Counted from the first letter of the stretch, positions 27,328 through 63,189 are shown. The stretch is DNA of 64,000 nucleotides from Phycisphaerales bacterium (GCA_040397805.1 JBBAVG010000011.1:2247-66246), one strand, 5' to 3'. Translations and numbers: made by a program. Notes: a model not told the origin generated them from the letters alone.

Positions 27328-28137
27328 TTGGCCCGCGGCTTCGCCGTTGAGGATGAAGGCGACATCCTGGGGCACCGCCACGGAGAGCATGGACTTGCCG
27401 GGGTCGACGACGGGCACCCACGCGTCGACGAGTCCGTCGGGCACGAGGGCCATGGCGTTGTCGTCGGCGTGCGAGCGCGACCCGGCTCGCGTCACGGGGA
27501 CGATCCAGGCCTGCATCGACGGATCGACGCACTGCACCTGCACGTCGAGCCAGTAGGTGGCGGGCATGTACGTGTACCCGCCCAGGTCGAGGTCGAGGGC
27601 CCAGATTCGCCGCGAGGCGTCCGGGGGCGTCACGAAGTTCGTCGGCGCCAGCGGGCGTGTGCTGAAGATCCGGATGGCGGTGGTCGGGGCGGCGGCGAGC
27701 AGCCGATTCCGCACGGCGTCGCCGTAGAAGACGTGTGTCTCGGCGGCGGCGGGGTTGGCGTCCCACAAGCGGAGCGTCGCGCCGGAGAAGGGCGAAGCGC
27801 CCGAGGGCACCGCGCCGTTGACGTACACGAAGATCGTGACGGAGGAGAGTCGCCAGCCGTGCTCGTGAGTGATGGTGAAGTCGTCGGCGACGCGGAAGGA
27901 GCCGCCGATGGCGCCGGGGTCGGGAGAGACGTTGAGCCCGGCGAGCAGGTTGACGTCGCCGGGCGAACTGGCGACCTCGGCGTAGACGCGTCCGGCGGGC
28001 GCGGGCGTGCCGGCGAAGGCGTGCGAGGCCACGGCGAACGCGGGCGTCGCGGGATCGTCGCTTTGGTTGCTCCAGATGGGCTGGGCGAGGGCGACCGGCG
28101 CGAGCGCCGCGAGGAGGATGGAGGCGACCGGGCTCAT
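27160..28137 (-). CDS. secreted protein of unknown function with C-terminal GC-type dockerin-like module
   Basis: Signal peptide MSPVASILLAALAPVALAQP. It ends CPADFNQDGGVDGDDMTTFFAAWEAGEMIADVNADGGIDGEDVTTFFLYWEAGGC. It has an ATGA overlap with the DUF1501 gene. Confidence 0.75.
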   Translation of the reverse strand: MSPVASILLAALAPVALAQPIWSNQSDDPATPAFAVASHAFAGTPAPAGRVYAEVASSPGDVNLLAGLNVSPDPGAIGGSFRVADDFTITHEHGWRLSSVTIFVYVNGAVPSGASPFSGATLRLWDANPAAAETHVFYGDAVRNRLLAAAPTTAIRIFSTRPLAPTNFVTPPDASRRIWALDLDLGGYTYMPATYWLDVQVQCVDPSMQAWIVPVTRAGSRSHADDNAMALVPDGLVDAWVPVVDPGKSMLSVAVPQDVAFILNGEAAGQCPADFNQDGGVDGDDMTTFFAAWEAGEMIADVNADGGIDGEDVTTFFLYWEAGGC

Positions 28138-31930: not shown

Positions 31931-32071
31931 GACGACTCCCGGCCATGGAGTTCCCGCGCGCGGCCACGCGAAACACCTGTGAAGCCGTAGGGAATATGCC
32001 ACCTGAAACGGAAAAAACGAGGGGAATCGGGCAAATGGCTTCAGATAACCTGCCATCGCCCTTGCGGAGGC

Positions 32072-32239
32072 TCAGCAGCCGCCCGCCTGCCAGATGACGA
32101 AGAACGCCTCCACGTCGCCGCCGTCGACGCCGCCGTCGTGGTTGACGTCGGCGCCGACCTCGGCCGCTTCCCACGCGAGGAAGAACGCGCCCACGTCGAG
32201 GCCGTCCACCCCGCCGTCCTGGTTGAAGTCGGCGGGGCA
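32072..32239 (-). repeat. coding repeat: 55-aa Cys..Cys twin-loop dockerin-like module, copy 2
   Basis: Same module at the C-terminus of the S8 peptidase. Confidence 0.8.
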
Positions 32240-33658
32240 GGTCGACTGGAAGGCCGCGAAGGCGTCGACCATGCCGTAGCCGCGGACGAAGAGTGCGTCG
32301 GGCGCCGCGGCGTCGGAGGCCGTGGAGCAGAGCGCCGCCCGCATCTGGTCGACCGTCCACCACGGGTTGGCCTGCACCAGGCACGCGACGGCGGCGGCCA
32401 CCAGGGGCGTGGAGAGCGACGTGCCGCTCGCGCCGGCGTACGTGTCGACGGTGTCGGGGTGGACGGTGGCGGTGCCCACGCCCCGGGCGAGCAGTTCGGG
32501 CTTGAGGCGGCCGTCGGCGGTGGGTCCGTCGGAGGAGAAACCCGCGATGACGCCCGCCGAATCGGCCGCGCCGCAGGAGATGACCCGCAGGCCGTCGGCG
32601 GGGGCGATGATGCTCGCCGTGGCCGGATCGGCGTCGTGCCCGTCGTTGCCCGCGGCGGTGCAGCAGTGCAGGCCGTTCTCGGCGGCGATGTTGACGGCGA
32701 TGGTCGTCACGGCGGTCTGGCCGTCGAGGTCCTCGCGGGTGTACCAATCGATGTAGCCGAGCGAGGAGGTGGCGACGTCACCGCCGCGAGCCTCGATGAA
32801 CTCGATGCCGGCGGCGTAGAAGTCCTCCTCGATGGGCGTCTCGCTCGCGACATTCTCCGTCTTGCAGAGGATGACGGAGGCGTCGTACGCGCCGCCGACG
32901 AGTTGGTCGGGCAGGTACGACGAGATGCACCCCAGGATGAGCGTGCCGTGCGAGTGCTGGCCCGCGGGATCTCCCGCCTCGGGCCCCGTCTGGTCGTCGG
33001 CGTTGATGAAGTCGCGTTCGGCGATGACGTGCAGCGGACGCGCCGGGTTGTTGAACGACTGGTGGACGCGGTTGAAGCCGGTGTCGAGGATGCCGATGAC
33101 GACGCCGCGGCCGGTGTACCCGCGGACGTGCATGGCCTGAAGGTTGATCTGCGCGAGTTGTGCCGAACTACGGCCGTAGAAGTCCCGCGGCACGTGGTGC
33201 GACCGATCCTCGGGCACCGCGTCCTCGCAGACCTGGGCCTCCGCGCAGCGTCGGCCACGAGCGACGGGCCGCACCTCGCGGACGCCCGGGAGCGAGCGAA
33301 TCGCCTCGACCTGCTCGGGCGTGGCCTCCACGCTCAGGGCGTTGAGCCATCGCGATTCGGTACGGACGCGGGCCAGCGCGGCCACCGCGACCCGGGGGCG
33401 TTCGTCGAGCGGAAGGTCCCGAACGTCGAGCAACCCCGGCGTGGTGCGCCGCAGGCGACGGCGTTCCAGCATGCGGGCGTCCGCCGCGTCCTCGGCTCGA
33501 CGCAACGCGACGTCGAGTGCCGCGGGATCGGACTGGGCCGCACGAGGTTGCAGGAAGACCCAGGTGGGCGTCGCCGGTTGGGACGCGCCGGCCACGGCGA
33601 CGAGGGAGAACGACGTGAGCAGGCCGATCAGACGGGCACGAGTGACGACAACGGACAT
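32072..33658 (-). CDS. secreted S8 (subtilisin-family) serine peptidase with C-terminal GC-type dockerin-like module
   Basis: Catalytic triad contexts GILDTGF (Asp), HGTLILG (His) and GTSLSTPLVAAA (Ser). It has a signal peptide and a propeptide-like N-region. It ends CPADFNQDGGVDGLDVGAFFLAWEAAEVGADVNHDGGVDGGDVEAFFVIWQAGGC. Confidence 0.87.
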   Translation of the reverse strand: MSVVVTRARLIGLLTSFSLVAVAGASQPATPTWVFLQPRAAQSDPAALDVALRRAEDAADARMLERRRLRRTTPGLLDVRDLPLDERPRVAVAALARVRTESRWLNALSVEATPEQVEAIRSLPGVREVRPVARGRRCAEAQVCEDAVPEDRSHHVPRDFYGRSSAQLAQINLQAMHVRGYTGRGVVIGILDTGFNRVHQSFNNPARPLHVIAERDFINADDQTGPEAGDPAGQHSHGTLILGCISSYLPDQLVGGAYDASVILCKTENVASETPIEEDFYAAGIEFIEARGGDVATSSLGYIDWYTREDLDGQTAVTTIAVNIAAENGLHCCTAAGNDGHDADPATASIIAPADGLRVISCGAADSAGVIAGFSSDGPTADGRLKPELLARGVGTATVHPDTVDTYAGASGTSLSTPLVAAAVACLVQANPWWTVDQMRAALCSTASDAAAPDALFVRGYGMVDAFAAFQSTCPADFNQDGGVDGLDVGAFFLAWEAAEVGADVNHDGGVDGGDVEAFFVIWQAGGC

Positions 33659-44115: not shown

Positions 44116-44128
44116 GCTCACGCGTCGA

Positions 44129-44296
44129 TCAGCAGCCGCCCGCTTCCCAGAGCGTGAAGAACTCCTGCACGTCGCCGCCGTCGATGCCGCCGTCTTCGTT
44201 CACGTCCGCGGCGCCGTCGCCCGCTTCCCACGCGACGAAGAAGGCTTCGATGTCGCCACCGTCGATGCCGCCGTCGCCGTTGAAGTCCGCGGCACA
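44129..44296 (-). repeat. coding repeat: 55-aa Cys..Cys twin-loop dockerin-like module, copy 3
   Basis: Same module at the C-terminus of propeller paralog 1. Confidence 0.8.
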
Positions 44297-45652
44297 GAAC
44301 GCCACCGTGCGATACGCCCTCACGAGGGTGTCGGTGCTGGTCATCACGAGCGTGCCGTCGGTGCCGAGCACGGGACCGCCCTGGTTGAGGTTGCCGTCGA
44401 TGGGCGCCTCCCACCGGAGGGTGAGATCGGGGTTGAAGGAGTAGAGGCGTCCGCCGTTGAAGCCGCCCGCGGTGCCGTTGGAGAGGTAGATGACGCCGCG
44501 GGCGTCGACGGCCATGTGGACCTGCATGTAGTCGCCGGTGATGGGCGTGGGGTAGGTGGCGATGACCGAGCCGGTGGCGGGATCGAGACGTTGCAGCGTG
44601 CCGGAGGCCTCGAAGTCCTGGGTGCCGGTCCAAGACATGCTGTAGATGGAGCCGTCGGGGCCGACGCCCCAGCGGGAGAACTCGCCGCCGCCGCCGGAGG
44701 AGGTCCGCCAGTTCTGGGTGATGGCGGTGCCCGTGTCGGTGAAGGAGTAGAGGAAGTCGTTGTTCACGTTGAAGTTCTGCGAATACGGCAGATACAGACG
44801 ACCATCGGTGCCGACGTAGAGGCCGTTGTGCAGGAGCACGCCTCCGAGCAGGGGTCCGCGGTAAAGGAAGGCGCCGGTCGTGGCGTCGAACTTGCGGATG
44901 GCCACGCGATTGCCGGACCCGTTGATGAGGTCGACGGTGTAGACGGCGTTGCCGTTGATGACGACGCCGGTGGTGTTGCCCACCTGCTCGACGCGAGCGG
45001 TCCGCCAGACGAGCAGGCCGGTCTGGGCGTCGATGCGTTCGATCCATCGCCACGAGGGCAAGATGAGGTCGCCGTCATCGGCGAAGACCGCGCCGGTGTA
45101 GGGGCCGGCGAGGATCTGGTAGCGGGGCACGTCCGTGCCGCCCGCCGTGTGCCACAGCACCGCGCCGGTCGCCGCGTCGAGGCAATAGAGCGGGGCGTCG
45201 ACGCTCCCGCCGTTGCCCGAGCGACTGGCGAAGAGTCGGCCGTTCTTGACGCCGGCGATCCACGTGGTCCAGTCGCCCGCCTCGAAGGGCAGATCGGCGG
45301 TCCAGAGGACCGCGCCGGTGTCGAGGTCCATCGCGTAGATCGTGGCGTCGTCGGGCGGCGGGTTGTTCTGCGGGAATGCGGTCTGTCGCACCATGAAGAC
45401 GCGGCGGCCCTCGATGACGGGGTTCCACGCGATGTAGCTGAAGGGGCCGCCCTCCCAGAGCAGATCGGAGGCACCGATGCCGTCAGGTCCGTTGACGTTG
45501 ACCAGTCCGTTCATGCGGCCGTTGCCGCCGAGGTTGGACCAGTCTTGCGTCTGCGCCTGAGCCTGGCCCGCCGAGAAGCCCGCCGAGAAGCCGGCCACGG
45601 CGACACACAAGGCACACCACCGCCACGCCATGCTTCGCAAATGGAACATCAT
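44129..45652 (-). CDS. secreted PQQ-like beta-propeller repeat protein with C-terminal GC-type dockerin-like module (paralog 1)
   Basis: Signal peptide MMFHLRSMAWRWCALCVAVAG. Repeated ...YAMDLDTGAVLW / YCLDAATGAVLW / IDAQTGLLVW blades. It ends CAADFNGDGGIDGGDIEAFFVAWEAGDGAADVNEDGGIDGGDVQEFFTLWEAGGC. Confidence 0.8.
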   Translation of the reverse strand: MMFHLRSMAWRWCALCVAVAGFSAGFSAGQAQAQTQDWSNLGGNGRMNGLVNVNGPDGIGASDLLWEGGPFSYIAWNPVIEGRRVFMVRQTAFPQNNPPPDDATIYAMDLDTGAVLWTADLPFEAGDWTTWIAGVKNGRLFASRSGNGGSVDAPLYCLDAATGAVLWHTAGGTDVPRYQILAGPYTGAVFADDGDLILPSWRWIERIDAQTGLLVWRTARVEQVGNTTGVVINGNAVYTVDLINGSGNRVAIRKFDATTGAFLYRGPLLGGVLLHNGLYVGTDGRLYLPYSQNFNVNNDFLYSFTDTGTAITQNWRTSSGGGGEFSRWGVGPDGSIYSMSWTGTQDFEASGTLQRLDPATGSVIATYPTPITGDYMQVHMAVDARGVIYLSNGTAGGFNGGRLYSFNPDLTLRWEAPIDGNLNQGGPVLGTDGTLVMTSTDTLVRAYRTVAFCAADFNGDGGIDGGDIEAFFVAWEAGDGAADVNEDGGIDGGDVQEFFTLWEAGGC

Positions 45653-45766
45653 GAACGAACTCCTGAATCGACCTCGCCGCAGCGACGTCGGACGCCGCGA
45701 TTCCGTCCCCGTTTCGCCAAAAGACACGGCCCGGCGGTCAGGCCGGGCCGTGCGATGAAGGTTGGA

Positions 45767-46699
45767 TCAGCGGCGCCGGCGACAGGTCGCCGCGGCGGCC
45801 AGTCCGAGCAACGCGAGCGAGCCGGGCGAAGGAATGGTGTATCCCTGCCAGCCGTTCCGCGCGTTGTCGTACACGAACAGTTGGTCGTTGGCGACGCTCA
45901 CGCCGCCGTAGAACTGCGGCACGTCGATGTCGAGATCCCACGAGTCCACGTACGAACCGTCGACGCGGAACCGCATCGCCTTGTTGATCGGCGCGTAGGC
46001 GGTGGCCACGAGGTAATCGTTCACGGCGTCGTACCCGAGGCCGAACCACGTCGTGGGCGGGCTTCCGGCCGCGGCCGTGTCGAGCGTGACGTTGCCGATC
46101 AGCGACCCGTCGACGCGGCTGACGACGTTGAGGACGTTGGTGTTGCTGAAGGAGTAGAGACGGTTCCTCGCGGAGTCGTACACCGGCATGGTCTGGGTGC
46201 CGCGGAGGCCGGGAAGCGACGGGAGCACCATCGTCGTCGAACCGGTCACCTGGCCCGCCGCATCCAACGGCACGGCGAAGAGGCCCTGCGGACGCCCGCC
46301 AACGGCCCCGATCCCGCCGTCACGCGCCCGCAACGTGAGCACCTCGAGCTGACCGGTGTTCGGGTTGTAGTTCACCGATCGAAGGTCGTGCTCGACCTCG
46401 AAGAAGGCCTGCACCTCGGAACCGGCCTCCGAGAAGACGTACAACTTCGAATAGAAGGAATCGCCATCACCGGACCCGGAACCGGCGGCGTAGTACTGCC
46501 GGAAGCCCGGATGCCACGTCACGTTCATTCCCGCCGAAGGCGTGATCGAGGTCTGAAGGAAGGTGGTCCGCTGGGCCACCCCGGCCTCTGCCTGATGGGA
46601 GACACCAAGCACCCCCGCCGCCATCACCGTGGCGACGACCAACGTTCCAAGTTCAGAAACAGCAGTCTTCACGTGGGCTCTCCTCATGCAGGTCCTCAA
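45767..46699 (-). CDS. PEP-CTERM-sorted secreted beta-rich protein
   Basis: Signal peptide (LGTLVVATVMAAGVLGVSHQAEA), a beta-propeller-like body, and the C-terminus TIPSPGSLALLGLAAAATCRRRR. Confidence 0.68.
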   Translation of the reverse strand: MRTCMRRAHVKTAVSELGTLVVATVMAAGVLGVSHQAEAGVAQRTTFLQTSITPSAGMNVTWHPGFRQYYAAGSGSGDGDSFYSKLYVFSEAGSEVQAFFEVEHDLRSVNYNPNTGQLEVLTLRARDGGIGAVGGRPQGLFAVPLDAAGQVTGSTTMVLPSLPGLRGTQTMPVYDSARNRLYSFSNTNVLNVVSRVDGSLIGNVTLDTAAAGSPPTTWFGLGYDAVNDYLVATAYAPINKAMRFRVDGSYVDSWDLDIDVPQFYGGVSVANDQLFVYDNARNGWQGYTIPSPGSLALLGLAAAATCRRRR

Positions 46700-46736
46700 G
46701 CCGCCGCGGTATCCGCCGCTCGCCGCTCGAGGCCGC

Positions 46737-46815
46737 TTTTATTACAACCTACCGACATCCATCACCAGTTGCAAGTACTTTTAGAAGTGATTCCAAAAGT
46801 TTTGCCTATTCAGCG
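46737..46815. promoter_or_regulatory. AT-rich divergent intergenic island with 6-bp inverted repeat ACTTTT-N12-AAAAGT
   Basis: ttttattacaacctaccgacatccatcaccagttgcaagtacttttagaagtgattccaaaagttttgcctatt stands out against the G/C-dominated flanks. It lies between divergent genes starting at 46699 (-) and 46885 (+). Confidence 0.4.
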
Positions 46816-46884
46816 ATGATGCGACGATACTCGCGGGGCGAGATTGGCGTCCCCGTGTATCATGCGATCAATCCAAGATGACGA

Positions 46885-48153
46885 ATGATCGACGACACAC
46901 CTGACAAACACCGCTCGTCTGCAGGGGGCACCCTGCATACCCGCTTCGAGCTCGACGCCACCGCCGTCGGTCGTCAACTGCACGGCGCCATGTCGGCACT
47001 GCTTGCGGAGGCCTGCGGCGGAGTCCCGATTCGGACCGGAACGGAGTTGAGCGCGGCCCTGGGGATCGACGTCAACCTCGCGTGGAAGGTGCTGAAGATC
47101 TGCCGCCCCGCGGCGGGCGCTTCGACGTTGCTTCGCCTTCCCGGCGATGGAGCCCTTCGCATTCTTCTGGCGGCGGCCGAGGGCAAGGGCGTGTCGACGT
47201 CGGCGGTCGACCGAGTTCGCCTCGCCTTCGAGGCCTACGACCGACTCGTGCTCACGCACGCCGGAAGCCGCTTGTCGCTCGATTCGCTGCTTGCGAATCT
47301 CGCGGGCGACGAGCAACCCATCGACCTGGCGACGCGACGCGCGGCCTTTCGCGCCAACGCGGCGGTGCTGGGCGTGCAGGCCTCCGTGCAGACGGCCGCC
47401 TACTTCTTCTGGCCGGAAACGATCGACGGCGTCGCCTCCTCGGGCATGGCGATCGTCCGCGGCATGAGCCAGTTCCGTCGCTTGCGGCCGGACGTGTCGT
47501 GGGTGATCGGTCGCGGACGACGGACCGACCATCAAGCCCGCCTCTACGGACACCCATTCCCCATGCCGCTCGACACGGAGACGGCGGAGCGTCACGGGGG
47601 CGTTCCGCTGGTTCAGTTCCTGTCGTCATGGGAGTTGCCGCCGGTTCGGAGGACGATCTCCCCCGACGGCATGGCGATCGACCGCATCGTCGGCGGGCCG
47701 GTGGGGCTGCAGGGTTCGCAGTCGTTCTTTCTCGCCGAGACGATGCGTCCGGGACTCGGGCGGCGGAACGACCCTTCGAACCCGACGCTCCGCCTGGTGG
47801 TCTCGTCGCATACGCCGTGCGAAACGCTGGTCTTCGACGCGCTGTTCCACAAGGACCTGCCGCCGCTGGGACCGCCCCGCGTGATCACGGCGAGCGAACT
47901 TGGCGGCGACTCGCTGGGCTACACGGCGGTGGAGGATCGCGTGACGCTGAATCTCGGCGCCGAGGTCGAGGATCACGGCCCGGGACTCGACACGCTGCAC
48001 ATCGCCGAACTGCCTCGCTATCCCGAACTGCTCGGATCGGTGTGCGAGCGACTCGCCGTGAACCCGGCGGACCTGCACGCGTGGCGGGTGCGGATCGCCT
48101 TTCCGCCCATCCCATGCGGCGTGCTGATCGAGCGAGACATGAACCCGGCGTGA
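46885..48153 (+). CDS. hypothetical cytoplasmic protein, possible N-terminal helix-turn-helix
   Basis: A 422-aa ORF with coding-like G/C-rich third positions and no signal peptide or TM. TGTELSAALGIDVNLAWKVLK has an HTH-like pattern. I recognise no family. Confidence 0.6.
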   Translation: MIDDTPDKHRSSAGGTLHTRFELDATAVGRQLHGAMSALLAEACGGVPIRTGTELSAALGIDVNLAWKVLKICRPAAGASTLLRLPGDGALRILLAAAEGKGVSTSAVDRVRLAFEAYDRLVLTHAGSRLSLDSLLANLAGDEQPIDLATRRAAFRANAAVLGVQASVQTAAYFFWPETIDGVASSGMAIVRGMSQFRRLRPDVSWVIGRGRRTDHQARLYGHPFPMPLDTETAERHGGVPLVQFLSSWELPPVRRTISPDGMAIDRIVGGPVGLQGSQSFFLAETMRPGLGRRNDPSNPTLRLVVSSHTPCETLVFDALFHKDLPPLGPPRVITASELGGDSLGYTAVEDRVTLNLGAEVEDHGPGLDTLHIAELPRYPELLGSVCERLAVNPADLHAWRVRIAFPPIPCGVLIERDMNPA

Positions 48154-48191
48154 CCACCGCCGTCACTCGCGGCGACAAGGCCCTCCCGTTC

Positions 48192-48228
48192 GCGACTGCG
48201 CCGTCGACACCGTCGCCGGCGCAGTCGC
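48192..48228. terminator. 11-bp perfect inverted repeat between convergent genes
   Basis: gcgactgcgcc ...15 nt... ggcgcagtcgc, between the stop at 48153 (+) and the stop at 48249 (-). There is no U-tract. Confidence 0.35.
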
Positions 48229-48248
48229 GACAGTCGAGCGTTCGCCCC

Positions 48249-48416
48249 TCAGCAGCTGCCGGCTTCCCAGAGGATGAAGAAGGCCTGCACGTCACCTCCG
48301 TCGACGCCGCCATCCTGATTGACGTCCGCGGCGGGATCGCCGGTCTGCCAGACGAGGAAGAAGGCCTCGACGTCCGCGCCGTCGATGCCGCCGTCGCCGT
48401 TGAAGTCGGCGGGACA
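48249..48416 (-). repeat. coding repeat: 55-aa Cys..Cys twin-loop dockerin-like module, copy 4
   Basis: Same module at the C-terminus of propeller paralog 2. Confidence 0.8.
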
Positions 48417-49754
48417 GGAGCCCGTGGTGCGGTACGCGCGGACGAGGGTGTCGGTGCTGGCGATCACGAGCGTGCCGTCGGTGCCGAGCACCGGGGCGCC
48501 CTGGTTGAGGTTGCCGTCGATGGGGGTTTCCCAGCGGAGGGTGAGATCGGGGTTGAAGGAGTAGAGGCGTCCGCCGTTGAAGCCGCCGGCGGTGCCGTTG
48601 GAGAGGTAGATGACGCCGCGGGCGTCGACGGCCATGTGGACCTGCATGTAGTCGCCGGTGATGGGCGTGGGACAGGTGGCGATGACCGAGCCGGTGGCGG
48701 GATCGATCCGCTGCAGCGTGCCGGAGGCCTCGAAGTCCTCGGTGCCGGTGAAGGACATGCTGTAGATGGAGCCGTCAGGGCCGACGCCCCAGCGGGAGAA
48801 CTCGCCGCCGCCGCCGGAGGAAGTGCGCCAGTTCTGGGTGATGGCCGAGCCCGTGTCGGTGAAGGAGTAGAGGAAGTCGTTGGCGACGTTGAAGTTCTGG
48901 GTGAAGGGAAGGTAGAGGCGGCCGTCGGTGCCGATGTAGAGCCCGTTGTGGAGAAAGCCGCCGGAGAGCGGCTCGGACTGGTACATGGGCGTGCCGGTGG
49001 TGGCGTTGATCTTGCGGACGACGATGCGAAGTCCGGACGCGCTGTCGGCGGTGTAGACGGCGTCGCCTTCGATCACCGCGCCGGTGGTGTTGCCCACCTG
49101 CTCGACGCGCGCGGTGCGCCAGAGGAGTTGGCCGGTCACGGCGTCGATGCGTTCGATCCAACGCCACGAGGGCACGATGATGTCGCCATCGTCGGCGAAG
49201 ACCGCGCCCGTGTAGGGGCCGGCGAGGATCTGATAGCGGGGCACGCTCGTGCCTCCAGCCGTGTGCCAGAGCACCGCGCCCGTCGCCGCATCGAGGCAGT
49301 AGAGGGGCGCGTCGACGCTGCCCCCGTCGCCGGATCGGCTGGCGAAGAGTCGGCCATTCTTGACGCCGGCGATCCACGTCGTCCAGTCGCCGTTCTCGAA
49401 GGGCAGGTCGGCGGTCCAGAGCACCGCGCCGGTGTCGAGGTCCATCGCGTAGATCGTCGCGTCGTCGGGCGGCGGATCGTTCTGTGGGAAGGCGGTCTGG
49501 CGCACCATGAAGACGCGGCGGCCCTCGATGACGGGGTTCCACGCGATGTAGCTGAAGGGGCCGCCCTCCCAGAGCAGGTCGGAGGCGCCGACGCCGTCGG
49601 GTCCGTTGACGTTCACCAGTCCGTTCATGCGGCCGTTGCCGCCGAGGTTGGACCAGTCCTGCGTCTGTCCACCGGCGTGTCCGACCGCGATCGCGACCGA
49701 GGCGAGGAACCAGACGACCGACGCGGAACGCCGCACCTGCAGACTCGACTTCAT
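48249..49754 (-). CDS. secreted PQQ-like beta-propeller repeat protein with C-terminal GC-type dockerin-like module (paralog 2)
   Basis: Signal peptide MKSSLQVRRSASVVWFLASVAIAVG. The mature region is collinear with 44129..45553. It ends CPADFNGDGGIDGADVEAFFLVWQTGDPAADVNQDGGVDGGDVQAFFILWEAGSC. Confidence 0.8.
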   Translation of the reverse strand: MKSSLQVRRSASVVWFLASVAIAVGHAGGQTQDWSNLGGNGRMNGLVNVNGPDGVGASDLLWEGGPFSYIAWNPVIEGRRVFMVRQTAFPQNDPPPDDATIYAMDLDTGAVLWTADLPFENGDWTTWIAGVKNGRLFASRSGDGGSVDAPLYCLDAATGAVLWHTAGGTSVPRYQILAGPYTGAVFADDGDIIVPSWRWIERIDAVTGQLLWRTARVEQVGNTTGAVIEGDAVYTADSASGLRIVVRKINATTGTPMYQSEPLSGGFLHNGLYIGTDGRLYLPFTQNFNVANDFLYSFTDTGSAITQNWRTSSGGGGEFSRWGVGPDGSIYSMSFTGTEDFEASGTLQRIDPATGSVIATCPTPITGDYMQVHMAVDARGVIYLSNGTAGGFNGGRLYSFNPDLTLRWETPIDGNLNQGAPVLGTDGTLVIASTDTLVRAYRTTGSCPADFNGDGGIDGADVEAFFLVWQTGDPAADVNQDGGVDGGDVQAFFILWEAGSC

Positions 49755-50006
49755 GACTGGACTCCGTTGGTTGAGCGATCCACGTTCGACGGACCCGTCG
49801 CCTCGTCGCACACGTCGCCCAACACCTTGTAGCGTCCCCGGTCCGACGACGGTTGCAGCCGACCGCTCATTCGAGTCCGCGACGTCGTGATCGTCGCCCT
49901 CGCGGATTCGCGATCGACCATCTGATGCGTCATTTATCAGACAACCGCCCAGGCGATCTCCGCGTCGCCGTCCGTTGCCGGCGTGGAGTGCCGCACCGAC
50001 GGGGCC

Positions 50007-50174
50007 TCAACAACCACCGGCCTCCCAGAGCGCGAAGAAGGCTTCGGCATCCGCACCGTCGACCCCGCCGTCGGCGTTGACGTCGGCGTCGGCGTCGCCC
50101 GCCTCCCACGCGGCGAAGAAGGCCCCGACGTCACTGCCGTCGACACCGCCGTCCTCGTTGAAGTCGGCCTTGCA
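50007..50174 (-). repeat. coding repeat: 55-aa Cys..Cys twin-loop dockerin-like module, copy 5
   Basis: Same module at the C-terminus of the 258-aa protein. Confidence 0.8.
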
Positions 50175-50783
50175 GGCGGGCACGACCTCGATGCGGAAGT
50201 TGTCGAAGTCGGTGATGGACGCGAACGCGCCGCCGGGCGTTGCGCTGCTGGTGAAGAAGCCGAAGCGGATGGGCTGGCCTTGGGCGGAGAACTCGGGGAT
50301 TCCAGGTTGGCCGTCGACGCGGGAGAACTCATCCCCGCGGACGGAGAGCACCTCGAGGCGGACCCATGAACCCGAGTTGCCCATGTACCGCATGCCAGTG
50401 CGGTAGACGACCTGTCCCTGCTTGATGGCAAGCGTCACGCCTTCGCCGATGCCCAGACCGTCGATGTGGCGCACGTCCAGCCACATCGAGACCGAGCCGA
50501 TGGCGCCTTGCGTGCCGGGCTCGTAGCGGGTGGCGGCGGTGTTGCCGAAGCGGTGGAAGCCGTTGACGGTGGACCCGGCCCGTGCGTTGACCGCGCTGGT
50601 CACCCTCCGGGCGTTGCCTGGGTTTCCGGTGGGCGACGTGACGGCCGACACGCTGCCGCCATCACCCGACACGGACGGCTCGATCACCCACGTTCCGGAG
50701 GCGAACTCGCCGTCCTGATACACCACCTGTCCGCACGCGACCGAACACGTCGCCGCGATCGATGCCAGCATCACGCTCCTCAT
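50007..50783 (-). CDS. small secreted protein of unknown function with C-terminal GC-type dockerin-like module
   Basis: Short signal peptide MRSVMLASIAATCSVACGQ and a beta-rich body of about 180 aa. It ends CKADFNEDGGVDGSDVGAFFAAWEAGDADADVNADGGVDGADAEAFFALWEAGGC. Confidence 0.7.
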   Translation of the reverse strand: MRSVMLASIAATCSVACGQVVYQDGEFASGTWVIEPSVSGDGGSVSAVTSPTGNPGNARRVTSAVNARAGSTVNGFHRFGNTAATRYEPGTQGAIGSVSMWLDVRHIDGLGIGEGVTLAIKQGQVVYRTGMRYMGNSGSWVRLEVLSVRGDEFSRVDGQPGIPEFSAQGQPIRFGFFTSSATPGGAFASITDFDNFRIEVVPACKADFNEDGGVDGSDVGAFFAAWEAGDADADVNADGGVDGADAEAFFALWEAGGC

Positions 50784-54099: not shown

Positions 54100-57000
54100 T
54101 CAGCGTCCGGAGAGGAGCATCAGGTCGGCGCCGACGGCCTCGAGCACGGCATCCTGCACTTCGGGGGCATCGCCTGGCATGAGCCGCTGCACGGCGGCGC
54201 GGCGAATGCGACCGACTTCGCCGGGCGAAAGACCGGCGGCCGCCGCACGGTCGGCGAACGTTCGCACGCCCCCGAGCGCGTCAAGCGCCAGGCGATCGGC
54301 CTCGCCCGCGTCGGCGACCAAACTCTCGAGGTGACGGCGGAACCCCTCGCCCGTGGCGGCGTCGCCCGCCTTAGCGACATAGCCCACCCATGCCGCCCCC
54401 ACTGCGGCGGCAAGCCGCTCCGAACGGTCGGCGGGCAGCGGCGAGCCGGCGAGCAGGGCCGCCTTCGCCTCGGCGGGCGCGTCGAACCAGAGCGAGCAAT
54501 AGGCGTCGAGCAGCGACGCGAGCGCGGGGCCCGAGAGTCGCTCGGCCGTCACGCCCAGAGGCATGGCGTCGCGGTCGTCCACGAGCGACACGTCCTGCAC
54601 GAACGTCGAGCGGGAGAGGAACTGCACGAGCTGGGCGCGGTCGACGGGCCGCACCTCGAGCCCCGCGGCGGCCAGCGGGAGCGGCGCGGCGAGCGTGGGC
54701 GTGACGCCCGGCGTCGTCGCGGTCATGGCCGTGCCACCACCGATGGCGGCCGGAACAGGCGGCGGCACGGCGGTGGTCACCGTGGTGGAGCTCCGCTGCG
54801 CCACGAGGTCGAGCGGCAGCAGCCGCGTATTGGTGCCCGGCGCGTTGAACATCGCCTGAGTGATGAGCTGGCGGCTGCCGTCGGGCGCGACGTGCAACCC
54901 AACGATCTGCCCCTCGAGCCCCGCGCCTTGGCGGATGTTGTCGGTGGCGATGGCGGCGGCGCCGGCGGGCGTGGCGTTGCCCCCGCCGGTGATGACGAAG
55001 TCGACGCCGGACTTGGCGACAAAGTCGACGAGGAACTCGGGGCGCGTGACGTACGCGCCGCCGGAACGCTGATTGGTCGCCACGGCGTTGACGGCGGGGT
55101 TCTTGGAGAGTCCGTTGATCGCGACCGAACCGGCCGTCACCCTGATCGACCCCGTGGAAGAGATGTCGGAGAGGATCGCGGGTCGGTTGCCGGCGCGAAG
55201 ATCGAGCGACCCGAAGACGGTGAGCTTCTGGCCCTTGCCCATCGTGAAGCCGCCCGCGGCGAAACTCGGCCCGTTGACGCCGATCACGAAGGTGGTTGCG
55301 CCGTTGAACATGCCCGTCTGGGGCACGATGCGACCCGAGGCGTCGAACCCGTCGCCCACCGCGAAGACCGCGGTGGCCACCGAGGGCGACGCGCCGAGGT
55401 CGGCGCCGAGCGTCAGGCGGCCCAGGGCGTTGGTCGAACCGATGGAGCCGGCGAAACGCAAGGGCGTGACGGTGACGTCGCCCGCAGTGTCGCCGTTGGC
55501 GACGAGGTCGGTGGCGTCGCCGTTCGAGGCGATCTTGGCGACGGCCGCGGAACGCAGGGCGAGGGTGCGGCCGGTGGTGTCGGAGGAATCGATGGTGCCG
55601 CGGAAGAAGAGCGTGCCTTGGCCGCCGTCGATGATCGAGTTGCCGGTGAGTTGGACGGGACCGCCGAAGACGATTCCTCGCTGCACCGTGATGGCGTCGC
55701 CCACCAGCGTGGTGCGGTTGTTGTTGTTCGCGTTGACGAGCAGGCGACCCAAGGCTCCGGTCGAGCCCACCGGGCCGCCGAAGGTGACGGTGCTGGTGGT
55801 GGTCGCCGTGAGGTTCGCACCGGCCGTGGCGGCATCGAGCGAGCGGGCGAAGGAGAGCGACGCGGCATCGAAGGCGGTGTTGCCGCCAATGACGACGGGA
55901 TCGAGGAAGGACGTCTGCCCGGTGGTCCGCACCGAGCCGCCGTTGACGGCCGTCGTGCCGCCCGCGTCGGTCTCGAGGTTGCTCAGGGCGTTGGTGTCGC
56001 CGACGGCGCGGGCGAAGGTGGTCACGCCGGCGGTGTTGACGATGAGCGAGCGGGCGGTCGCTCCGAGCGTGTTGACGCGGCCGCCGAAGGTGACGGGGGC
56101 GTTGACGGCCGAGATGGTGGCGTTGGCGGCGAGGGACAGGTCGTCCTGGAAACTCACGCCTGCCCCGCTGAGCGTGCTGACGATGTTGCCGGAGATGGTG
56201 GTCGGCGCGGGCGTGAGCGAGTCGAGGCGGCGGAACCGCACGGCCTGGGCCGCGACGCTGGCGACCGAGGCGGACCCGAAGGCGTCGAAGTCGCCGCCCG
56301 CGACGATGTTGGCGAGCGTGGCGGAACCGCGATAGGTCTGCGAACCCACGGTGGTGACGTTGGTGAGCGAGATGGTGCCCGCGGTGATGTCGATCGACTC
56401 GAGGTTGCTCAGGACGCCCGTGTCGCCCGCGATGCTCACGGCCGACCCGCCGCTCACGACCAATCGCCGCGTGACGCCCTGCGAATCGACGCGGGCGGCG
56501 AAGGCGACGCCGTTGCCGGTCAGCGTCGTGTCGGCGTCGAGCAGGGCGTTCTCGCCGTAGGACTGTGCGCCGGTGGTGGTGACGTTGCCGCCGATCACCA
56601 CGCTGCCTCCCGCGTCGGTGGTGAGCGACGCCAACGCCAGCGAGCCGGGAACGCCGTCGATCACGCCCCCCACCACGCCGCCGAACCGCGTCTGGCCCGA
56701 GGCGTTGACGGTGAGCGATCGCACGGAGGTGTCGCTGTTGACGCGACGGTCGAAGTTGACGTCGGAGGCGAAGAGGCGGGTGTCGTCGGCCGTGAGGCGG
56801 ATGTCGTCGAGGTAGGTCTGCGCGCCGGTGGTGCGGACGGTCGCGGGCAGGAAGGTGACGCCGGTGGCGTTGGTCGTGAGCGACGCCAAGGGGGTGATGC
56901 CGCCGATGGTGGCGGCAAAGACGGTGTTGGCGGTCGCGCCGCCCGTGTTGACCGTCAGGGCGCGTGATTGTCCGGCGTCGGAATCGACGGTGGAGCGGAA

Positions 57001-60000
57001 GGCGATGCTGCCGCCCGACTCGACGGTGGTGTTCGCGCCCAACTGCATGGCGTCGCCGAAGGTGATGTCGCCCGCGACGCGGACCGTGCCCCCGTTGAGC
57101 GTGAGCGACCCGCCGTCGTCGGTGACAAGCGTGCCCAGGCGGCCCGCGCCCGTGTCGTCGCCGCCGACCGCGCCGACCAGGGAGGTGACGGGCGAGTTGA
57201 TGGTCAGCGAGCGGGCAAAAGTCGCGGCTGACTGCACCGTCGACGCGAAGGTGACGGACGTGGTGCCGGTGACGGTGGTGTCGGCCTCGAGCGTGACGGG
57301 ACCGGAAAAGAGCACCGAGGTGCCGCTGATCACGGCGGCCGTGCCGCCCACGGAGGGATCGTCGCGGAGGGTGGTCGTGCCGCCGAGCGTGACCGCGCCG
57401 AGCGACCGCACCGAGGCGACGTTGACGCTCGTGCCGCTGGCGGCCAGCGAGGCAAGGGCAACATCGCCGCCGATCGCGCCGGCGACGTCGACCGTGCCAG
57501 CGGGGGCCGAGAGCGTGAGCGATCGTTCCGAACCTGACGCGAGGGAATCGACGCGGCCGCCGATCGTGACATCGCCGCCGGTGGCGGTGATGGCGGCGTT
57601 CGAGCCGACGCGAACGTCGCCGGTCGTCGTCACGCCGCCCGTGTCGGCGAGCAGGTTGCCCGCGAGCGTCGTGGGACCGGCGTAGGACTGTCCGCCCGCG
57701 GTGTGGACGGCCTGCAGCGAGATCGAGCCGCCGGTGATGGAGAGCGTGCGGACCAGCCGGTTCGACGCGCTGCCTGATGGGCCTGCGAGCGACACCGCGC
57801 CCGCCCCGGCGTTCACCACCAGATCGCGATTGGACGTGGTGTCGTCGGCGTCGACGCCCGCGCCGAAGGTCACCGCGCCGCCGGCGGTGCCGATGGTGAC
57901 GCTGTCGGTCAGCGTGACGCCCCGAACGAAGGACACGGCATCGCCCGTGGTGGTGATGCCGGCCGCGAGGGCCGTGGCGCCCGTGGCGGCGGCGTTCTGC
58001 GTGAACGCGCCGTCGAGCGCGAGTCCCGCGCCGTCGATCGTGAGGAGGCCGGAGTTGTTGACCGTCATCGCCCCGTCCGCCGAGGTCGTGACGCCCCCGA
58101 CCAGCGTGATCGTCCGGCCCGTGAGGCCCACCGGACCGGCCGCGCGGATGGCGGCGAGGGTGGCGATATCCGAGGCGACCATGGTGAAGGCCTCGAGCGC
58201 GGTCGTCCCCCCCACCGAGCCGCCCAAGGTCACCAGACCGTCGCTGCCCGCCACGCCCGACGATCCGGCGCGCAGGGTGAGCGACTCGGCGCCCGCGGTG
58301 GTGGCGTCGATGGCGCCCGTGACCGCGATCGAGCCCACGTCGGCCCCGCCCGTCACCGCGCCCGCGGCGGTGGTGTCGAAGGTGACGTCGGCGGTCAGTC
58401 GCACGGACGACGCCAGCGTGATGTCGCCGCCGGACGTGACGATGTCGCCGCCCGCGACGTACGTCCCCGTCGCCGTGGCGTTGATGCCCGCAGGGGCGAC
58501 GAGCCGGCCCGCGGCGATGTCCCCGCTCGCGGCCGCCAACGTCAGCGACTTGCCCGCCTTGAGCGTCGCGTCGCCCATCGTGATCGAGGACCCTCGAAGC
58601 GAGAGCGACCAATCGCGGTCGAGCCCTGCGCCGGAGAGGTCGAACGCGTTGGCCTGCAACGCGCCGGCGTCCGCGCCGGTGCGGCCGATGACGACCGCGC
58701 CCGTGCTTGCCAGTCGCCCGAGTTCGGCGGCGTCGAGCGAGAAGGCGCCCGACGCGCCCGCGAGGCCGACGCCGATGCCCGCGGCCGACGGCGTGAGCGT
58801 GATGCCCGCCTGGCCGGTGATCGTCGCGCCCACGTCGAGCGTCGCGGCGGTGATCGCGACCGCGTTGCTGCCGGCGTCGAGCGAGGCCGCGTTGGCCACG
58901 CCGCCCGTGTGCGTCAGCGTGATGCCGCCCGTCGCCGTCACCGCCGCGGCGGAATCGAACCGAACGCCGCTGGAGGCGAACGCGCCGCCGTTGGTGTTGA
59001 TCGTCGCGTCGACGGAAACATCGCCCGCCGCGGCGTTGGCGTCGTTGGGATCGGTGTTGGCGCGGAGCGTCACGTTGAGCTGCCCGCTCGTGGCGACGAT
59101 CGAGTTGGAGACGATGATGTCGTTGGCGGCCTCGAGCGTGAGCGTGGCGGAGCCGGTGCCGGCGCTCTTGAGAATCGAATCCTGGACGGTGATGTTGCCC
59201 TGCTGGGTTCCCAGCGGATCAGCGGTGGTGATGGTGATGTTGGTGTCGGCGTTGAGGGCGGCCTGGATGGTGTCGCGGTTGACGTTGGCGTTGTCGATCG
59301 TGGGGTTGAAGACGCCCCCCGTGATCACGCCGTCGTCGAGGCCGCTGGCGGTGATGGTGACGTCGCGGGGGTCGATGAGCCACGACCCGGCGCGGCCGCG
59401 CGGGGCGGCGGCGGTGATCTCGCGGCTCGAGAGGTCGAGCTGGCCCTTGCTGGAGGTCTCGATGAAGCCGCCGTCACCGCCGCGGACGCCGCCCTTGGCG
59501 GAGATGTCGCCGTAGACGCGGCTGGCCTGATCGGACCAGACGACGACGCTGCCGCCATTTCCCCGCTCGGTGGCGTCGGCCCTGATGACGCTGTCGCGGC
59601 TGACGTACGCCACGTCGGCGCGGGGCAGGTCGCCCCGGCCCTGGATGTCGCCGCCGACGCGAACCTCGCCGCCGCCGCGGGTTCCCGAGGCGTCGATCGA
59701 GGCGGCGAAGAGGCCGACCTTCTCGCCGAGCACCTCGACGCGGCCGCCGCGGCCCGGGCCGCCCGCGCCGCCGCCACGCACGGCGGCGGCGTCGAGCGTT
59801 CCCTCGACGTGCACCTCGCCGCTCGACGCGGCCACCCTGATGTCGCGGCCGCGGACCGTGCCGCCGACCCGCATGGCCATGGAATAGACGTCACCGGCGG
59901 CCATGGCGACGACGCCGGACGAGGCGTCGATGGAGCCGGTGGTGGAGACGGCCGGACCGGCCGCGTCGTCGGCGCGTCCCTCGACGCGGACGTGGATGCC

Positions 60001-60681
60001 CCCGTCGCGGCGACCGATCATGACGTCCTCGCCGGCGGCCATCACGACCGCGCCTTGAGGCGCATCGATGCTGCCCGCGTTGCCGACGCTGCGACCGAGC
60101 AGGCCCACGAAGTCGGCGGTGATGGAACCCTCGTTGACGACGCGGCCCGAGAGATCGGTGAAGCGATCGAGGCCGCGGACGAAGTCGGAATCGCTCATGC
60201 GGCCCGCGGCGGCGTAGAGGCCCGCGACATCGACCCTCGCGGTGGCGCCGAAGAGGACGCCCGAGGGGTTGACGATGTAGACGCGGCCGTTGGCCAGGAG
60301 CGAGCCGTCGATGCGGGTGGGCTGGGCGGACTGGACGCGGTTGAGGACGCGGGCGGCGGCGTCGGGCTGCTGGAAGCGGACGGTCTCGCCCCTCGCGATG
60401 TCGAAGGAGCGGTAGTCGATGATGCTGTTGCGACCGGCGCGAATGACGGTTTCCGCACCGTTGCGGGTGATGGTGACGTCGCCACGGACCACGCGGGGGG
60501 CTTCGGGGCCGGCGACGGCGGCGGAGGCGAGCAGGGCGACGAGCACGCCCGCGACCGCGCCGGGCGCAAGCAGCGAGCGTCCGCCGCGGGCGCACGCCTC
60601 GGCGACGGCGGCGAGGTCGCTCGCGGTGCGGGGCGAGGCGGCGGCGGGAGTGGGCCTTGCGACAAAGTGTGCCATGGTCAC
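54100..60681 (-). CDS. two-partner secretion exoprotein (TpsA, filamentous haemagglutinin family)
   Basis: The N-terminal TPS domain has VVRGDVTITRNGAETVIRAGRNSIIDYRSFDIARGETVRFQQP...VLNRV...IDGSLLANGRVYIVNPSGVLFG. About 1700 aa of Gly/Thr/Ala beta-helix repeats follow. Confidence 0.87.
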   Translation of the reverse strand: MTMAHFVARPTPAAASPRTASDLAAVAEACARGGRSLLAPGAVAGVLVALLASAAVAGPEAPRVVRGDVTITRNGAETVIRAGRNSIIDYRSFDIARGETVRFQQPDAAARVLNRVQSAQPTRIDGSLLANGRVYIVNPSGVLFGATARVDVAGLYAAAGRMSDSDFVRGLDRFTDLSGRVVNEGSITADFVGLLGRSVGNAGSIDAPQGAVVMAAGEDVMIGRRDGGIHVRVEGRADDAAGPAVSTTGSIDASSGVVAMAAGDVYSMAMRVGGTVRGRDIRVAASSGEVHVEGTLDAAAVRGGGAGGPGRGGRVEVLGEKVGLFAASIDASGTRGGGEVRVGGDIQGRGDLPRADVAYVSRDSVIRADATERGNGGSVVVWSDQASRVYGDISAKGGVRGGDGGFIETSSKGQLDLSSREITAAAPRGRAGSWLIDPRDVTITASGLDDGVITGGVFNPTIDNANVNRDTIQAALNADTNITITTADPLGTQQGNITVQDSILKSAGTGSATLTLEAANDIIVSNSIVATSGQLNVTLRANTDPNDANAAAGDVSVDATINTNGGAFASSGVRFDSAAAVTATGGITLTHTGGVANAASLDAGSNAVAITAATLDVGATITGQAGITLTPSAAGIGVGLAGASGAFSLDAAELGRLASTGAVVIGRTGADAGALQANAFDLSGAGLDRDWSLSLRGSSITMGDATLKAGKSLTLAAASGDIAAGRLVAPAGINATATGTYVAGGDIVTSGGDITLASSVRLTADVTFDTTAAGAVTGGADVGSIAVTGAIDATTAGAESLTLRAGSSGVAGSDGLVTLGGSVGGTTALEAFTMVASDIATLAAIRAAGPVGLTGRTITLVGGVTTSADGAMTVNNSGLLTIDGAGLALDGAFTQNAAATGATALAAGITTTGDAVSFVRGVTLTDSVTIGTAGGAVTFGAGVDADDTTSNRDLVVNAGAGAVSLAGPSGSASNRLVRTLSITGGSISLQAVHTAGGQSYAGPTTLAGNLLADTGGVTTTGDVRVGSNAAITATGGDVTIGGRVDSLASGSERSLTLSAPAGTVDVAGAIGGDVALASLAASGTSVNVASVRSLGAVTLGGTTTLRDDPSVGGTAAVISGTSVLFSGPVTLEADTTVTGTTSVTFASTVQSAATFARSLTINSPVTSLVGAVGGDDTGAGRLGTLVTDDGGSLTLNGGTVRVAGDITFGDAMQLGANTTVESGGSIAFRSTVDSDAGQSRALTVNTGGATANTVFAATIGGITPLASLTTNATGVTFLPATVRTTGAQTYLDDIRLTADDTRLFASDVNFDRRVNSDTSVRSLTVNASGQTRFGGVVGGVIDGVPGSLALASLTTDAGGSVVIGGNVTTTGAQSYGENALLDADTTLTGNGVAFAARVDSQGVTRRLVVSGGSAVSIAGDTGVLSNLESIDITAGTISLTNVTTVGSQTYRGSATLANIVAGGDFDAFGSASVASVAAQAVRFRRLDSLTPAPTTISGNIVSTLSGAGVSFQDDLSLAANATISAVNAPVTFGGRVNTLGATARSLIVNTAGVTTFARAVGDTNALSNLETDAGGTTAVNGGSVRTTGQTSFLDPVVIGGNTAFDAASLSFARSLDAATAGANLTATTTSTVTFGGPVGSTGALGRLLVNANNNNRTTLVGDAITVQRGIVFGGPVQLTGNSIIDGGQGTLFFRGTIDSSDTTGRTLALRSAAVAKIASNGDATDLVANGDTAGDVTVTPLRFAGSIGSTNALGRLTLGADLGASPSVATAVFAVGDGFDASGRIVPQTGMFNGATTFVIGVNGPSFAAGGFTMGKGQKLTVFGSLDLRAGNRPAILSDISSTGSIRVTAGSVAINGLSKNPAVNAVATNQRSGGAYVTRPEFLVDFVAKSGVDFVITGGGNATPAGAAAIATDNIRQGAGLEGQIVGLHVAPDGSRQLITQAMFNAPGTNTRLLPLDLVAQRSSTTVTTAVPPPVPAAIGGGTAMTATTPGVTPTLAAPLPLAAAGLEVRPVDRAQLVQFLSRSTFVQDVSLVDDRDAMPLGVTAERLSGPALASLLDAYCSLWFDAPAEAKAALLAGSPLPADRSERLAAAVGAAWVGYVAKAGDAATGEGFRRHLESLVADAGEADRLALDALGGVRTFADRAAAAGLSPGEVGRIRRAAVQRLMPGDAPEVQDAVLEAVGADLMLLSGR

Positions 60682-60741
60682 GAATCCTCGGCTCGCACGG
60701 ATCGCCGCGTCACTCGAAGGACGCGGCGCGGACGAACGGTG

Positions 60742-62946: not shown

Positions 62947-63189
62947 CCGCGTGTCCTGAAGGCGGTTCGCCGAGCCGTCCGGGGTCGTGACATGAGCCTC
63001 GGATCGCGGGGAAGTTAGGGATAGGTTCACCGAGCAGTCAAGCCGCGGCGACGCAATCGGGACCGCCTCGTCTTCACGTCAACTGGAGTTCAAGGCCGGG
63101 CCCCGAACGGACGCCGACACGTGGAGCGTCGACCCGAGCGAGATCCGGACGCTACCCTTGCGTCAAATCCAGATCAGGGAGTCACGACC

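Follow-up and report, generated by a model that had tools for sequence, protein, structure and literature searches.

Old, partly homogenised propeller-dockerin paralogs with one diverged blade at a Phycisphaerales locus

Introduction

A 64,000-nucleotide stretch of DNA from a Phycisphaerales bacterium (GCA_040397805.1, JBBAVG010000011.1:2247-66246), called the window here and numbered from its first letter, carries two genes for secreted beta-propeller proteins with a C-terminal dockerin, both on the minus strand between positions 44129 and 49754. Gene A (44129..45652) encodes 507 amino acids and gene B (48249..49754) encodes 501. The two genes are identical over long runs of DNA and sharply different in a single patch, which raises the question of whether they stem from a recent duplication or form an older pair whose likeness has another source. 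An earlier note on this sequence took the former view, describing a recent duplication with swapped signal peptides and one hypervariable patch. The best explanation, to which we assign a probability of about three in four, is that A and B are old paralogs that have been homogenised in segments, with one blade remodelled on the B lineage.

Results

The two open reading frames span 44129..45727 and 48249..49811, with likely ATG starts at 45652 for A and 49754 for B. Homology detected by blastn extends from the mature N-terminus (QTQDWSNL; 45553 in A, 49667 in B) to the stop codon (44129 and 48249, respectively) at 87.7% identity over 1427 nucleotides, and blastn found none on either side beyond these points. 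The mature regions are collinear to the terminal Cys and highly identical, as had been noted before. The longest identical DNA runs measure 83, 77 and 53 nucleotides, whereas in permutations the longest run averaged 43 (p=0.0024), and the sum of the five longest also exceeds chance (p<1e-4 by permutation). The signal-peptide regions of the two genes are unrelated, sharing 39% of their nucleotides. The signal peptide of A (45554..45652, minus strand) has 49% nucleotide identity to that of A in a sister lineage, and the signal peptide of B is kept at 95% nucleotide identity in B orthologues. N-termini differ among nearly all members of the propeller family, and the proposed swap of signal peptides is not supported; the unrelated 5' ends of A and B merely mark the point at which homology stops. 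The A protein has a canonical cleavage site (AQA followed by Q), and both proteins are predicted to be secreted through Sec-type signal peptides. Inspection of the end junctions of A and B for insertion scars showed only that homology stops at the stop codon, and no frameshift or stop was found in any copy.

The differences between A and B are not evenly spread. With a sliding window of 30 codons, nucleotide identity falls to 63-69% in the patch and is 86-99% in the rest of the propeller. The proportion of nonsynonymous differences (pN) reaches 0.318 in the patch, the remaining segments of the propeller having 0.02-0.05 (permutation p<0.0002), in agreement with the idea of paralogs that share a conserved scaffold and differ in one diverged blade. 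The dockerin tails (44129-44305 in A, 48249-48425 in B) also differ, with 72% amino acid identity, 79% nucleotide identity and a pN of 0.14. The divergent parts of the pair are three: the signal peptides, the patch and the dockerin tail. The first two had been recognised as exceptions to the overall likeness and the third had been missed.

To date the pair, we compared the window with relatives' contigs from other samples (L001-L003, L005, L007-L013 and the P0007 contig). L001-L003 and L005 have the layout of the window, in which gene C is followed by B, X, Y, A, a biotin/lipoate ligase (BPL) gene, QRPTase and an M28 peptidase, and their flanks are 95-99% identical to it. Together, L001/2/3, L005 and L008/9 make up the syntenic two-copy loci. 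In L005 the A and B genes share 82/82/67/84/87/77% of their nucleotides over six successive segments. The proportion of synonymous differences (pS) between them is 0.30-0.50 in every segment and homogeneous along the gene (heterogeneity p=0.28), whereas between A and B of the window it ranges from 0.15 to 0.44 and is heterogeneous. The true divergence of the pair, and its real age, is therefore given by an identity of about 82% and a pS of 0.3-0.5. This sister-genome comparison shows that A and B are old paralogs and partly homogenised, and the claim of a recent duplication is not supported. A recent tandem duplicate is contradicted as a description of the pair by the pS of 0.15-0.44 in the window, the two unrelated genes that separate the copies, and the presence of the pair in sister lineages at a pS of 0.3-0.5.

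The two intervening genes, X and Y, travel with A. A trio of X, Y and a propeller recurs in distant genomes and in unrelated contexts, in L010/L011, in L012 and on the P0007 contig (L010:5084-9524; L012:5467-9545; window 44129-48153), where X is 62-66% and Y 52-59% identical to the proteins of the window. The propeller beside X and Y occupies the same position in L001, L005, L008, L010 and L012. In two further relatives, L007 (flanks about 82% identical) and L013 (94-96%), a single gene lies between C and the BPL gene, without X or Y. This gene is B-type in the signal peptide in L013, and B-type in most of the propeller and in the dockerin in both. Gene A is the native propeller of a three-gene module that now lies beside the resident, stand-alone gene B, the orthologue of the single gene that L007 and L013 have at this site, and A and B do not make up a tandem duplicate.

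Gene A of the window is a mosaic. It was typed at the sites where A and B of the sister lineage (L005) differ, by scoring which of the two the window's A matches, and was segmented with a hidden Markov model over 264 informative sites. Four segments were obtained, all on the minus strand. The first (45551-45077), covering the N-terminal blades, is B-like at 72 of 86 informative sites, with 90-94% nucleotide identity to B versus 80-84% to A of L005, and holds identical runs of 77 and 44 nucleotides. It is followed by an un-homogenised A-type block (45052-44570; 66 of 85 sites A-like) that is 92-95% identical to A of L005 and comprises the patch with about 90 nucleotides upstream and about 260 downstream. 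A second B-like tract, in the last blades (44569-44313; 23 of 29 sites B-like), has a pS to B of 0.15 and contains the identical runs of 83 and 53 nucleotides at 44551-44415. The 3' segment (44309-44138) is again A-type (32 of 39 sites). Only 83 runs of like sites were counted where 133 +/- 8 are expected (runs test, p<1e-4).

The same switches appear in distances and in trees. In the segment N1, A of the window is 80% identical to A of L005 and 93-94% identical to B. Its pS to the window's B is 0.15-0.19 in the segments N1 and mid2 versus 0.29-0.44 elsewhere (p=0.013). A tree of the patch and the adjoining segment mid1 places it with A of L005 and the module propellers of L010 and L012, and its placement in the clade of B and the L007 gene is rejected by the approximately unbiased (AU) test (p=0.004). 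For the N-half, the tree joins it to the L007 gene and B (support 85/91). In the dockerin tree A stands apart from B, with the module propellers of distant genomes. A smaller mosaic was observed in B itself: at 49163..49356 (minus strand), B of the window, of L008 (same population) and of L005 differ at 31 clustered sites in about 200 nucleotides, the rest of B being 96-99% identical. In this stretch the window's B partly equals its own A and the L007 gene, and the same sites are polymorphic in Logan metagenome contigs. These comparisons show segmental homogenisation of A and B. Affinity switches, lowered synonymous divergence and over-long identical runs, the signs of gene conversion between paralogs, were all found, and localized gene conversion, one of the possibilities raised earlier, is retained as part of the explanation. 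Under every variant of the history, segments of A have differing pasts, and the similarity of A and B does not date their duplication.

The patch corresponds to one whole propeller blade. It spans 44831..44965 in A (amino acids 230-274), in the family-consensus form, and 48951..49079 in B (amino acids 226-268), where it is blade 4 in a derived form; both lie on the minus strand, exactly where they had been placed before. The blade of B comprises strands 226-229, 232-240, 243-250 and 256-259 and the loop to the next blade. The two versions share 49% of their amino acids and 67% of their nucleotides, and a two-codon (6-nucleotide) indel separates them. The blade carries the fourth A-x-D-x-x-T-G repeat and is predicted by AlphaFold2 as four regular strands at a predicted local distance difference test score (pLDDT) of 90-98. 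The A patch is 98% identical in amino acids to that of L005 and 74-82% to those of ten other family members, whereas the B patch is 45-68% identical to all but its own orthologues, the best patch elsewhere in the family reaching 68%.

When changes were polarised with outgroups, derived states of B were found at 16 of 46 columns in the patch, compared with 14 of 407 in the remaining sequence (odds ratio 15, p=5e-10). Many of the patch changes affect positions constant in 9-10 of 10 outgroups. No enrichment of A-lineage changes was seen in the patch, and the variability of this region in the family outside the B type is not unusual (entropy 0.94 vs 0.82). Between B of the window and the L007 gene, pS is flat along the gene (0.19-0.28, p=0.75; 0.24 in the patch), whereas pN is 0.234 in the patch versus 0.02-0.08 elsewhere. 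The patch gained 16 nonsynonymous against 5 synonymous changes along the polarised B branch, a ratio of nonsynonymous to synonymous rates (omega) of about 1.2, compared with 15 and 23 in the rest of the propeller (0.22; Fisher p=0.013). These data show a lineage-specific burst of change in blade 4 on the B lineage, fixed since.

The changes in the blade include conservative ones in the strands (V/I/A/L/F/M) as well as radical ones in turns and loops (N>E, N>D, N>L, D>N, F>P, G>S, P>E/A, L>P), so that the patch is not a buried core with conservative substitutions only. The scaffold residues of the blade are all kept in B (G-AVY, D, RK, ATTG, Y, GG-LHNG). By the usual topology of propellers, the B-C loop, which is shortened in B, would share a face with the D-A loop, where changes are heavy, and the change in blade 4 may have altered a binding surface once a second propeller was present, by sub- or neofunctionalisation. 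The gap of two residues is not specific to B, being common to the L007 gene, the L013 gene and the module propeller of L012. The patches can be ordered stepwise from the consensus (A) form through the L007 and L013 genes to B. The fully derived patch occurs only in two-copy loci, and single-copy loci have consensus-like or intermediate patches; the two-copy loci probably come from one ancestor, so this association counts as a single event. The un-homogenised block around the patch, at 480 nucleotides, is about 3.5 times the length of the patch. The patch may have escaped homogenisation through selection or mechanically, as a region of 63-69% identity with an indel is a poor substrate for recombination.

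The word hypervariable, used for the patch in the earlier note, does not describe it. Among 13 B-type proteins from many independent metagenomes, a single patch residue varies (E/A), while other parts of B vary; the 14/43 variable columns stem nearly all from one intermediate, P0133. Among 17 A-type proteins the patch varies at 3 columns. In Logan contigs from four freshwater runs the B-patch contig showed 0 differences and the A-patch contig 0-3, although contigs can hide rare variants. Contig joints at the dockerin repeats, which have short sides (<40 nucleotides) and come from many dockerin genes in the metagenomes, were not used for the single-copy haplotype. The patch exists as two stable, paralog-specific forms with evolutionary intermediates.

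A diversity-generating retroelement (DGR), raised earlier as something to check for, or another targeted hypermutation system would account for the local bunching of differences and for nothing further. A sensitive blastn of both patches and a repeat scan over the 64-kb window returned only the other paralog, so that the window holds no second copy to serve as template repeat. Substitutions start from all four bases without adenine bias (8 of 42 patch differences start from A, and all twelve substitution types are present). No reverse transcriptase lies nearby: every gene within about 8 kb, in the window as at six syntenic loci, codes for something else. With patches that are also identical across independent metagenomes, the evidence from the window, the syntenic loci and the metagenomes makes this mechanism extremely unlikely.

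The genes around A and B were then described. Gene C (50007..50783, minus strand), the conserved left neighbour of B, encodes a secreted protein of 258 amino acids with a GC-type dockerin (NF041540, 35.9 bits) and is 99.6% identical in amino acids to its L005 orthologue. Gene X (46885..48153, plus strand) encodes 422 amino acids; its orthologues in L005, L008, L010, L012 and the P0007 contig are 62-99% identical, and its protein has no Pfam or NCBIfam match. Gene Y (45767..46687, minus strand) encodes a secreted protein of about 300 amino acids with a PEP-CTERM/MYXO-CTERM-like C-terminal tail (...PSPxSLALLGLAA..RRRR; weak PF07589 and TIGR03382 matches), and its orthologues lie next to the propeller in L005, L008, L010 and L012 at 52-99% amino acid identity. 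A terminator-like hairpin (45727..45745, minus strand), GC-rich and followed by a T-rich tail (TGTCTTTTGG), is located 21 nucleotides past the stop codon of Y and 74 before the ATG of A, which suggests that A may be transcribed apart from Y. Translation of a GTG-extended A frame reaching 45727 is unlikely.

Compared with L005, the part of the window that contains X, Y and the 5' half of A (about 48170-44900) is 63-85% identical in nucleotides, versus 95-99% for the flanks, and the proteins X, Y and C are 77%, 78% and 99.6% identical. The X-Y-A stretch (44900-48170) resembles a flexible island that occurs in three haplotypes or more, the module being absent from L013. Deletion chimeras with a 5' end of B and a 3' end of A were considered as the source of the L007 and L013 genes and rejected: both have a B-type dockerin, the L013 gene has a B-type signal peptide, and A-like states are interleaved singly and not in runs. 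Further along the window, a two-partner secretion (TPS) pair at 54100-63030 (minus strand) consists of an ShlB/FhaC-type transporter (PF03865) and then a 2193-residue exoprotein with a TPS domain (PF05860).

Both A and B match PF13360 (PQQ_2), with 46.4 and 50.9 bits against a Pfam gathering cut-off of 27.6, and both match the GC-type dockerin NF041540, with 31.6 bits in A (residues 453-505 of 507) and 38.3 bits in B (447-499 of 501) against a cut-off of 29. The BamB equivalog NF008351 scored only about 17 bits against a cut-off of 423, neither signal peptide having a lipobox Cys, and the PQQ-dependent alcohol dehydrogenase model TIGR03075 scored 19.5-20 bits against 480. These scores lie far below the cut-offs, so that A and B belong neither to BamB nor to the quinoprotein enzymes. 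AlphaFold2, given 91 homologues, modelled B with a pLDDT of 91.3 and a predicted template modelling (TM) score of 0.87. The top Foldseek matches to this model are all eight-bladed PQQ-like propellers (E 1e-13 to 5e-16, TM 0.5-0.8), and the nearest solved folds are tetrathionate hydrolase (6l8a), YxaL (7dxn), BamB (3q7m) and methanol dehydrogenases, at 11-22% identity. The blades carry a repeated A-x-D-x-x-T-G-x-x-x-W motif.

The dockerin reads CxADFNGDGGIDGxD...DVNxDGGxDGGD...C and comprises two calcium-loop repeats with a helix behind each one (459-470 and 486-498 in the AlphaFold2 model of B). The tail of A ends in GGC and that of the window's B in WEAGSC (48249-48260), while B orthologues and A end in AGGC, with the Gly-Cys that names the domain. 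The tail of A (44129..44305, minus strand) is GC-type and of the A type, is 91% identical in amino acids to that of L005, and groups in the tree with the L010 module propeller (89/97 support). In some A-type alleles from other samples (P0141-P0143) the dockerin is of a third kind, only 76-81% identical both to the tail of A in the window and to that in L005; the dockerin is thus also exchanged, or fast-evolving, among alleles. The window contains five GC-type dockerin tails, all on the minus strand and 75-77% identical in DNA to one another. They are found on unrelated mature domains, namely an unknown 325-residue protein (about 27153-27329), an S8 subtilase (about 32065-32241), the propellers A (about 44122-44298) and B (about 48242-48418), and protein C (about 50000-50176). 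A and B would be attached by way of the dockerin and would serve in binding, not in catalysis, and the family is probably held at the cell surface through this domain. It counts hundreds of members in Phycisphaerales and Planctomycetota metagenome bins. The organism of the window is frequent in lake, freshwater, wastewater and aquaculture metagenomes, its closest named records being Phycisphaerales and Planctomycetota metagenome-assembled genomes.

Discussion

The preferred history would run as follows. A and B, as old paralogs, belong to a family of secreted eight-bladed PQQ_2-type (BamB/YxaL-like) propellers with a GC-type dockerin that extends across the Phycisphaerales. B would be the resident gene between C and the BPL gene, and A would have come with a module made up of X, on the opposite strand, Y and then a propeller-dockerin gene. 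The tracts 45551-45077 and 44569-44313 of A carry B-type sequence, which in the lineage of the window would have been gained either by gene conversion between the paralogs or by import of an allele in which the exchange had already taken place. This exchange would have raised the identity of A and B to 88% and made the long identical runs, bypassing the signal peptides and the dockerin as well as the A-type block that contains the patch. Separately, blade 4 on the B lineage took a burst of amino acid replacements at family-conserved positions, with normal synonymous divergence, and has been fixed since. The most economical order may be an exchange between paralogs followed by exchange of whole-island alleles between related strains.

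Several observations weigh against this history or parts of it. In the N-half, 16 of the 23 amino acid differences are autapomorphies of A in the sister lineage, L005, and the AU test, at the protein and the DNA level, does not reject monophyly of the two A genes there (p=0.11-0.15). Divergence of the window from L005 also runs on without a break through X and Y (63-85% identity vs 95-99% in the flanks), which suggests replacement of a whole allele. The B-like tracts of A have a pS of 0.15-0.22 from every B-type gene, and the split between the window and L005 has a pS of 0.03-0.09; the tracts are older than the split, and in-situ conversion after it is excluded. For blade 4, the omega of about 1.2 on the B branch is not significantly above 1 (binomial p=0.48; pairwise values 0.6-1.0), so that positive selection is not shown. 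Finally, pS between B of the window and the L013 gene is 0.26-0.30 in the segment N2 and the patch versus 0.09 at the gene ends, which leaves room for a recombinational origin of the centre of B.

One competing account holds that a recent tandem duplication was followed by exchange of the signal peptides, and that diversifying selection drove one patch apart in a young pair. The 88% nucleotide identity with its long identical runs would fit a young pair, and the patch has a pN/pS near 1. However, sister genomes with flanks at 95-99% hold the same pair at 82% and a pS of 0.3-0.5 throughout, and the patch itself, with a pS of 0.35-0.46, equals that old background. A and B fall in different clades for the patch and dockerin segments, two unrelated module genes accompany A in distant genomes, and N-termini vary across the whole family, all of which makes this account very unlikely. 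A second possibility is that no conversion took place in the lineage of the window, A having kept its original N-half, only moderately diverged from B, and that the L005 type imported a divergent block of X, Y and the 5' part of A from an unsampled relative. It would explain why the divergence fills one unbroken block (48100-44900) with X and Y inside it, why 16 of 23 N-half differences are unique to A of L005, and why the AU test leaves the monophyly of A in the N-half standing. It does not explain why pS between A and B of the window differs two- to threefold between tracts (p=0.013) with over-long identical runs, nor why pS between the window's A and the L013 gene rises from 0.15-0.19 in the N-half to 0.39-0.46 in the patch and dockerin, and the homogeneous pS between A and B of L005 is that of an unexchanged pair. 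We regard it as unlikely though worth keeping in view, and even if it held, segment-specific histories would remain and the duplication would not be recent.

Import of the B patch by recombination from a divergent family member, whether a third paralog or a foreign allele, would accord with the raised pS to the L013 gene in N2 and the patch and with a locus that is demonstrably recombinogenic. Yet a search of 5.8 billion proteins in which the patch region alone was scored returned the B-type cluster (P0005) alone and no donor, the best other family patch being 68% identical. The pS of the patch to the L007 gene (0.24) equals that of its flanks, and the L007 gene, the L013 gene and B form steps in which A-like and B-like states are interleaved at single sites and not in runs; import of the patch is therefore improbable. 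The main alternative is that the burst reflects relaxed constraint on a redundant blade of B after a second copy was present, without new specificity. An omega indistinguishable from 1 and the restriction of the fully derived patch to two-copy loci are what relaxation would give. The retained scaffold residues and the regular predicted blade argue the other way, as do the near-invariance of the patch after the burst (13 sequences) while other parts of B vary and the intact reading frame of every copy, and relaxation is a possible explanation that we nevertheless consider less than probable. A bolder proposal treats the X-Y-propeller island together with B as a variable surface locus that recombination drives, in a Phycisphaerales population widespread in fresh water. 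In this view positive selection reshaped blade 4 of B to a new binding specificity after the module propeller arrived. Three haplotypes do occur on a 95-99% identical backbone, one without the module and two that carry it in allelic forms sharing 63-85% identity, but the proposal as a whole is doubtful. If it were true, blade 4 would set the binding specificity in a whole family of dockerin-tethered receptors, on which phages or grazers might exert pressure.

Taken as old paralogs with segmental homogenisation and one remodelled blade, A and B are a case of ordinary paralog evolution in an uncharacterised surface-protein family, through partial gene conversion or allelic recombination and the divergence of one blade, and no general concept is altered by it. 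The case carries a caution, since high identity between neighbouring paralogs does not date their duplication. It is also a clean natural example in which one blade of a surface-tethered propeller has changed in one paralog with intermediates kept in relatives, which points to blade 4 as a likely seat of specificity for ligands or partners in this large and uncharacterised family of surface proteins of planctomycetes. The X-Y-propeller-dockerin module, conserved and polymorphic for both insertion and alleles, may be the more interesting object.

Parts of the locus resemble systems that have been described. A cohesin/dockerin planctosome has been proposed for freshwater Phycisphaerae (Andrei et al. 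2019, PMC6461901), in a model that is itself hypothetical. Like that system, the locus belongs to a freshwater planctomycete lineage with secreted dockerin-bearing proteins, peptidases among them, which suggests a surface-assembled complex; the planctosome concerns other proteins and families, and no cohesin scaffold was identified here, no search aimed at a cohesin partner having been made. A literature search on the term GC-type dockerin found nothing. With other NF041540 proteins, A and B share a Cys before the first loop, two D-x-N-x-D-G-G-x-D-G-x-D repeats with their helices, and a terminal Cys. With the BamB/YxaL-type propellers of PF13360 they share the fold and the blade motif, and they differ from them in being secreted with a dockerin tail and in having 11-22% identity to the solved structures.

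The variable proteins of DGRs likewise have amino acid differences bunched in a short stretch of a surface-protein gene. Their variable region is typically C-type-lectin or Ig-like, whereas the region that differs here is a whole beta-propeller blade without variability in the population. A further parallel is the concerted evolution of bacterial paralogs by gene conversion, of which tufA and tufB in enterobacteria are an example. As in that case, A and B have near-identical non-allelic tracts on one replicon, sharp switches of affinity and lower synonymous divergence inside the tracts. Unlike that case, the homogenisation of A and B is partial and old (pS 0.15-0.2 in the tracts) and is overlaid by the replacement of X-Y-A island alleles between close relatives.

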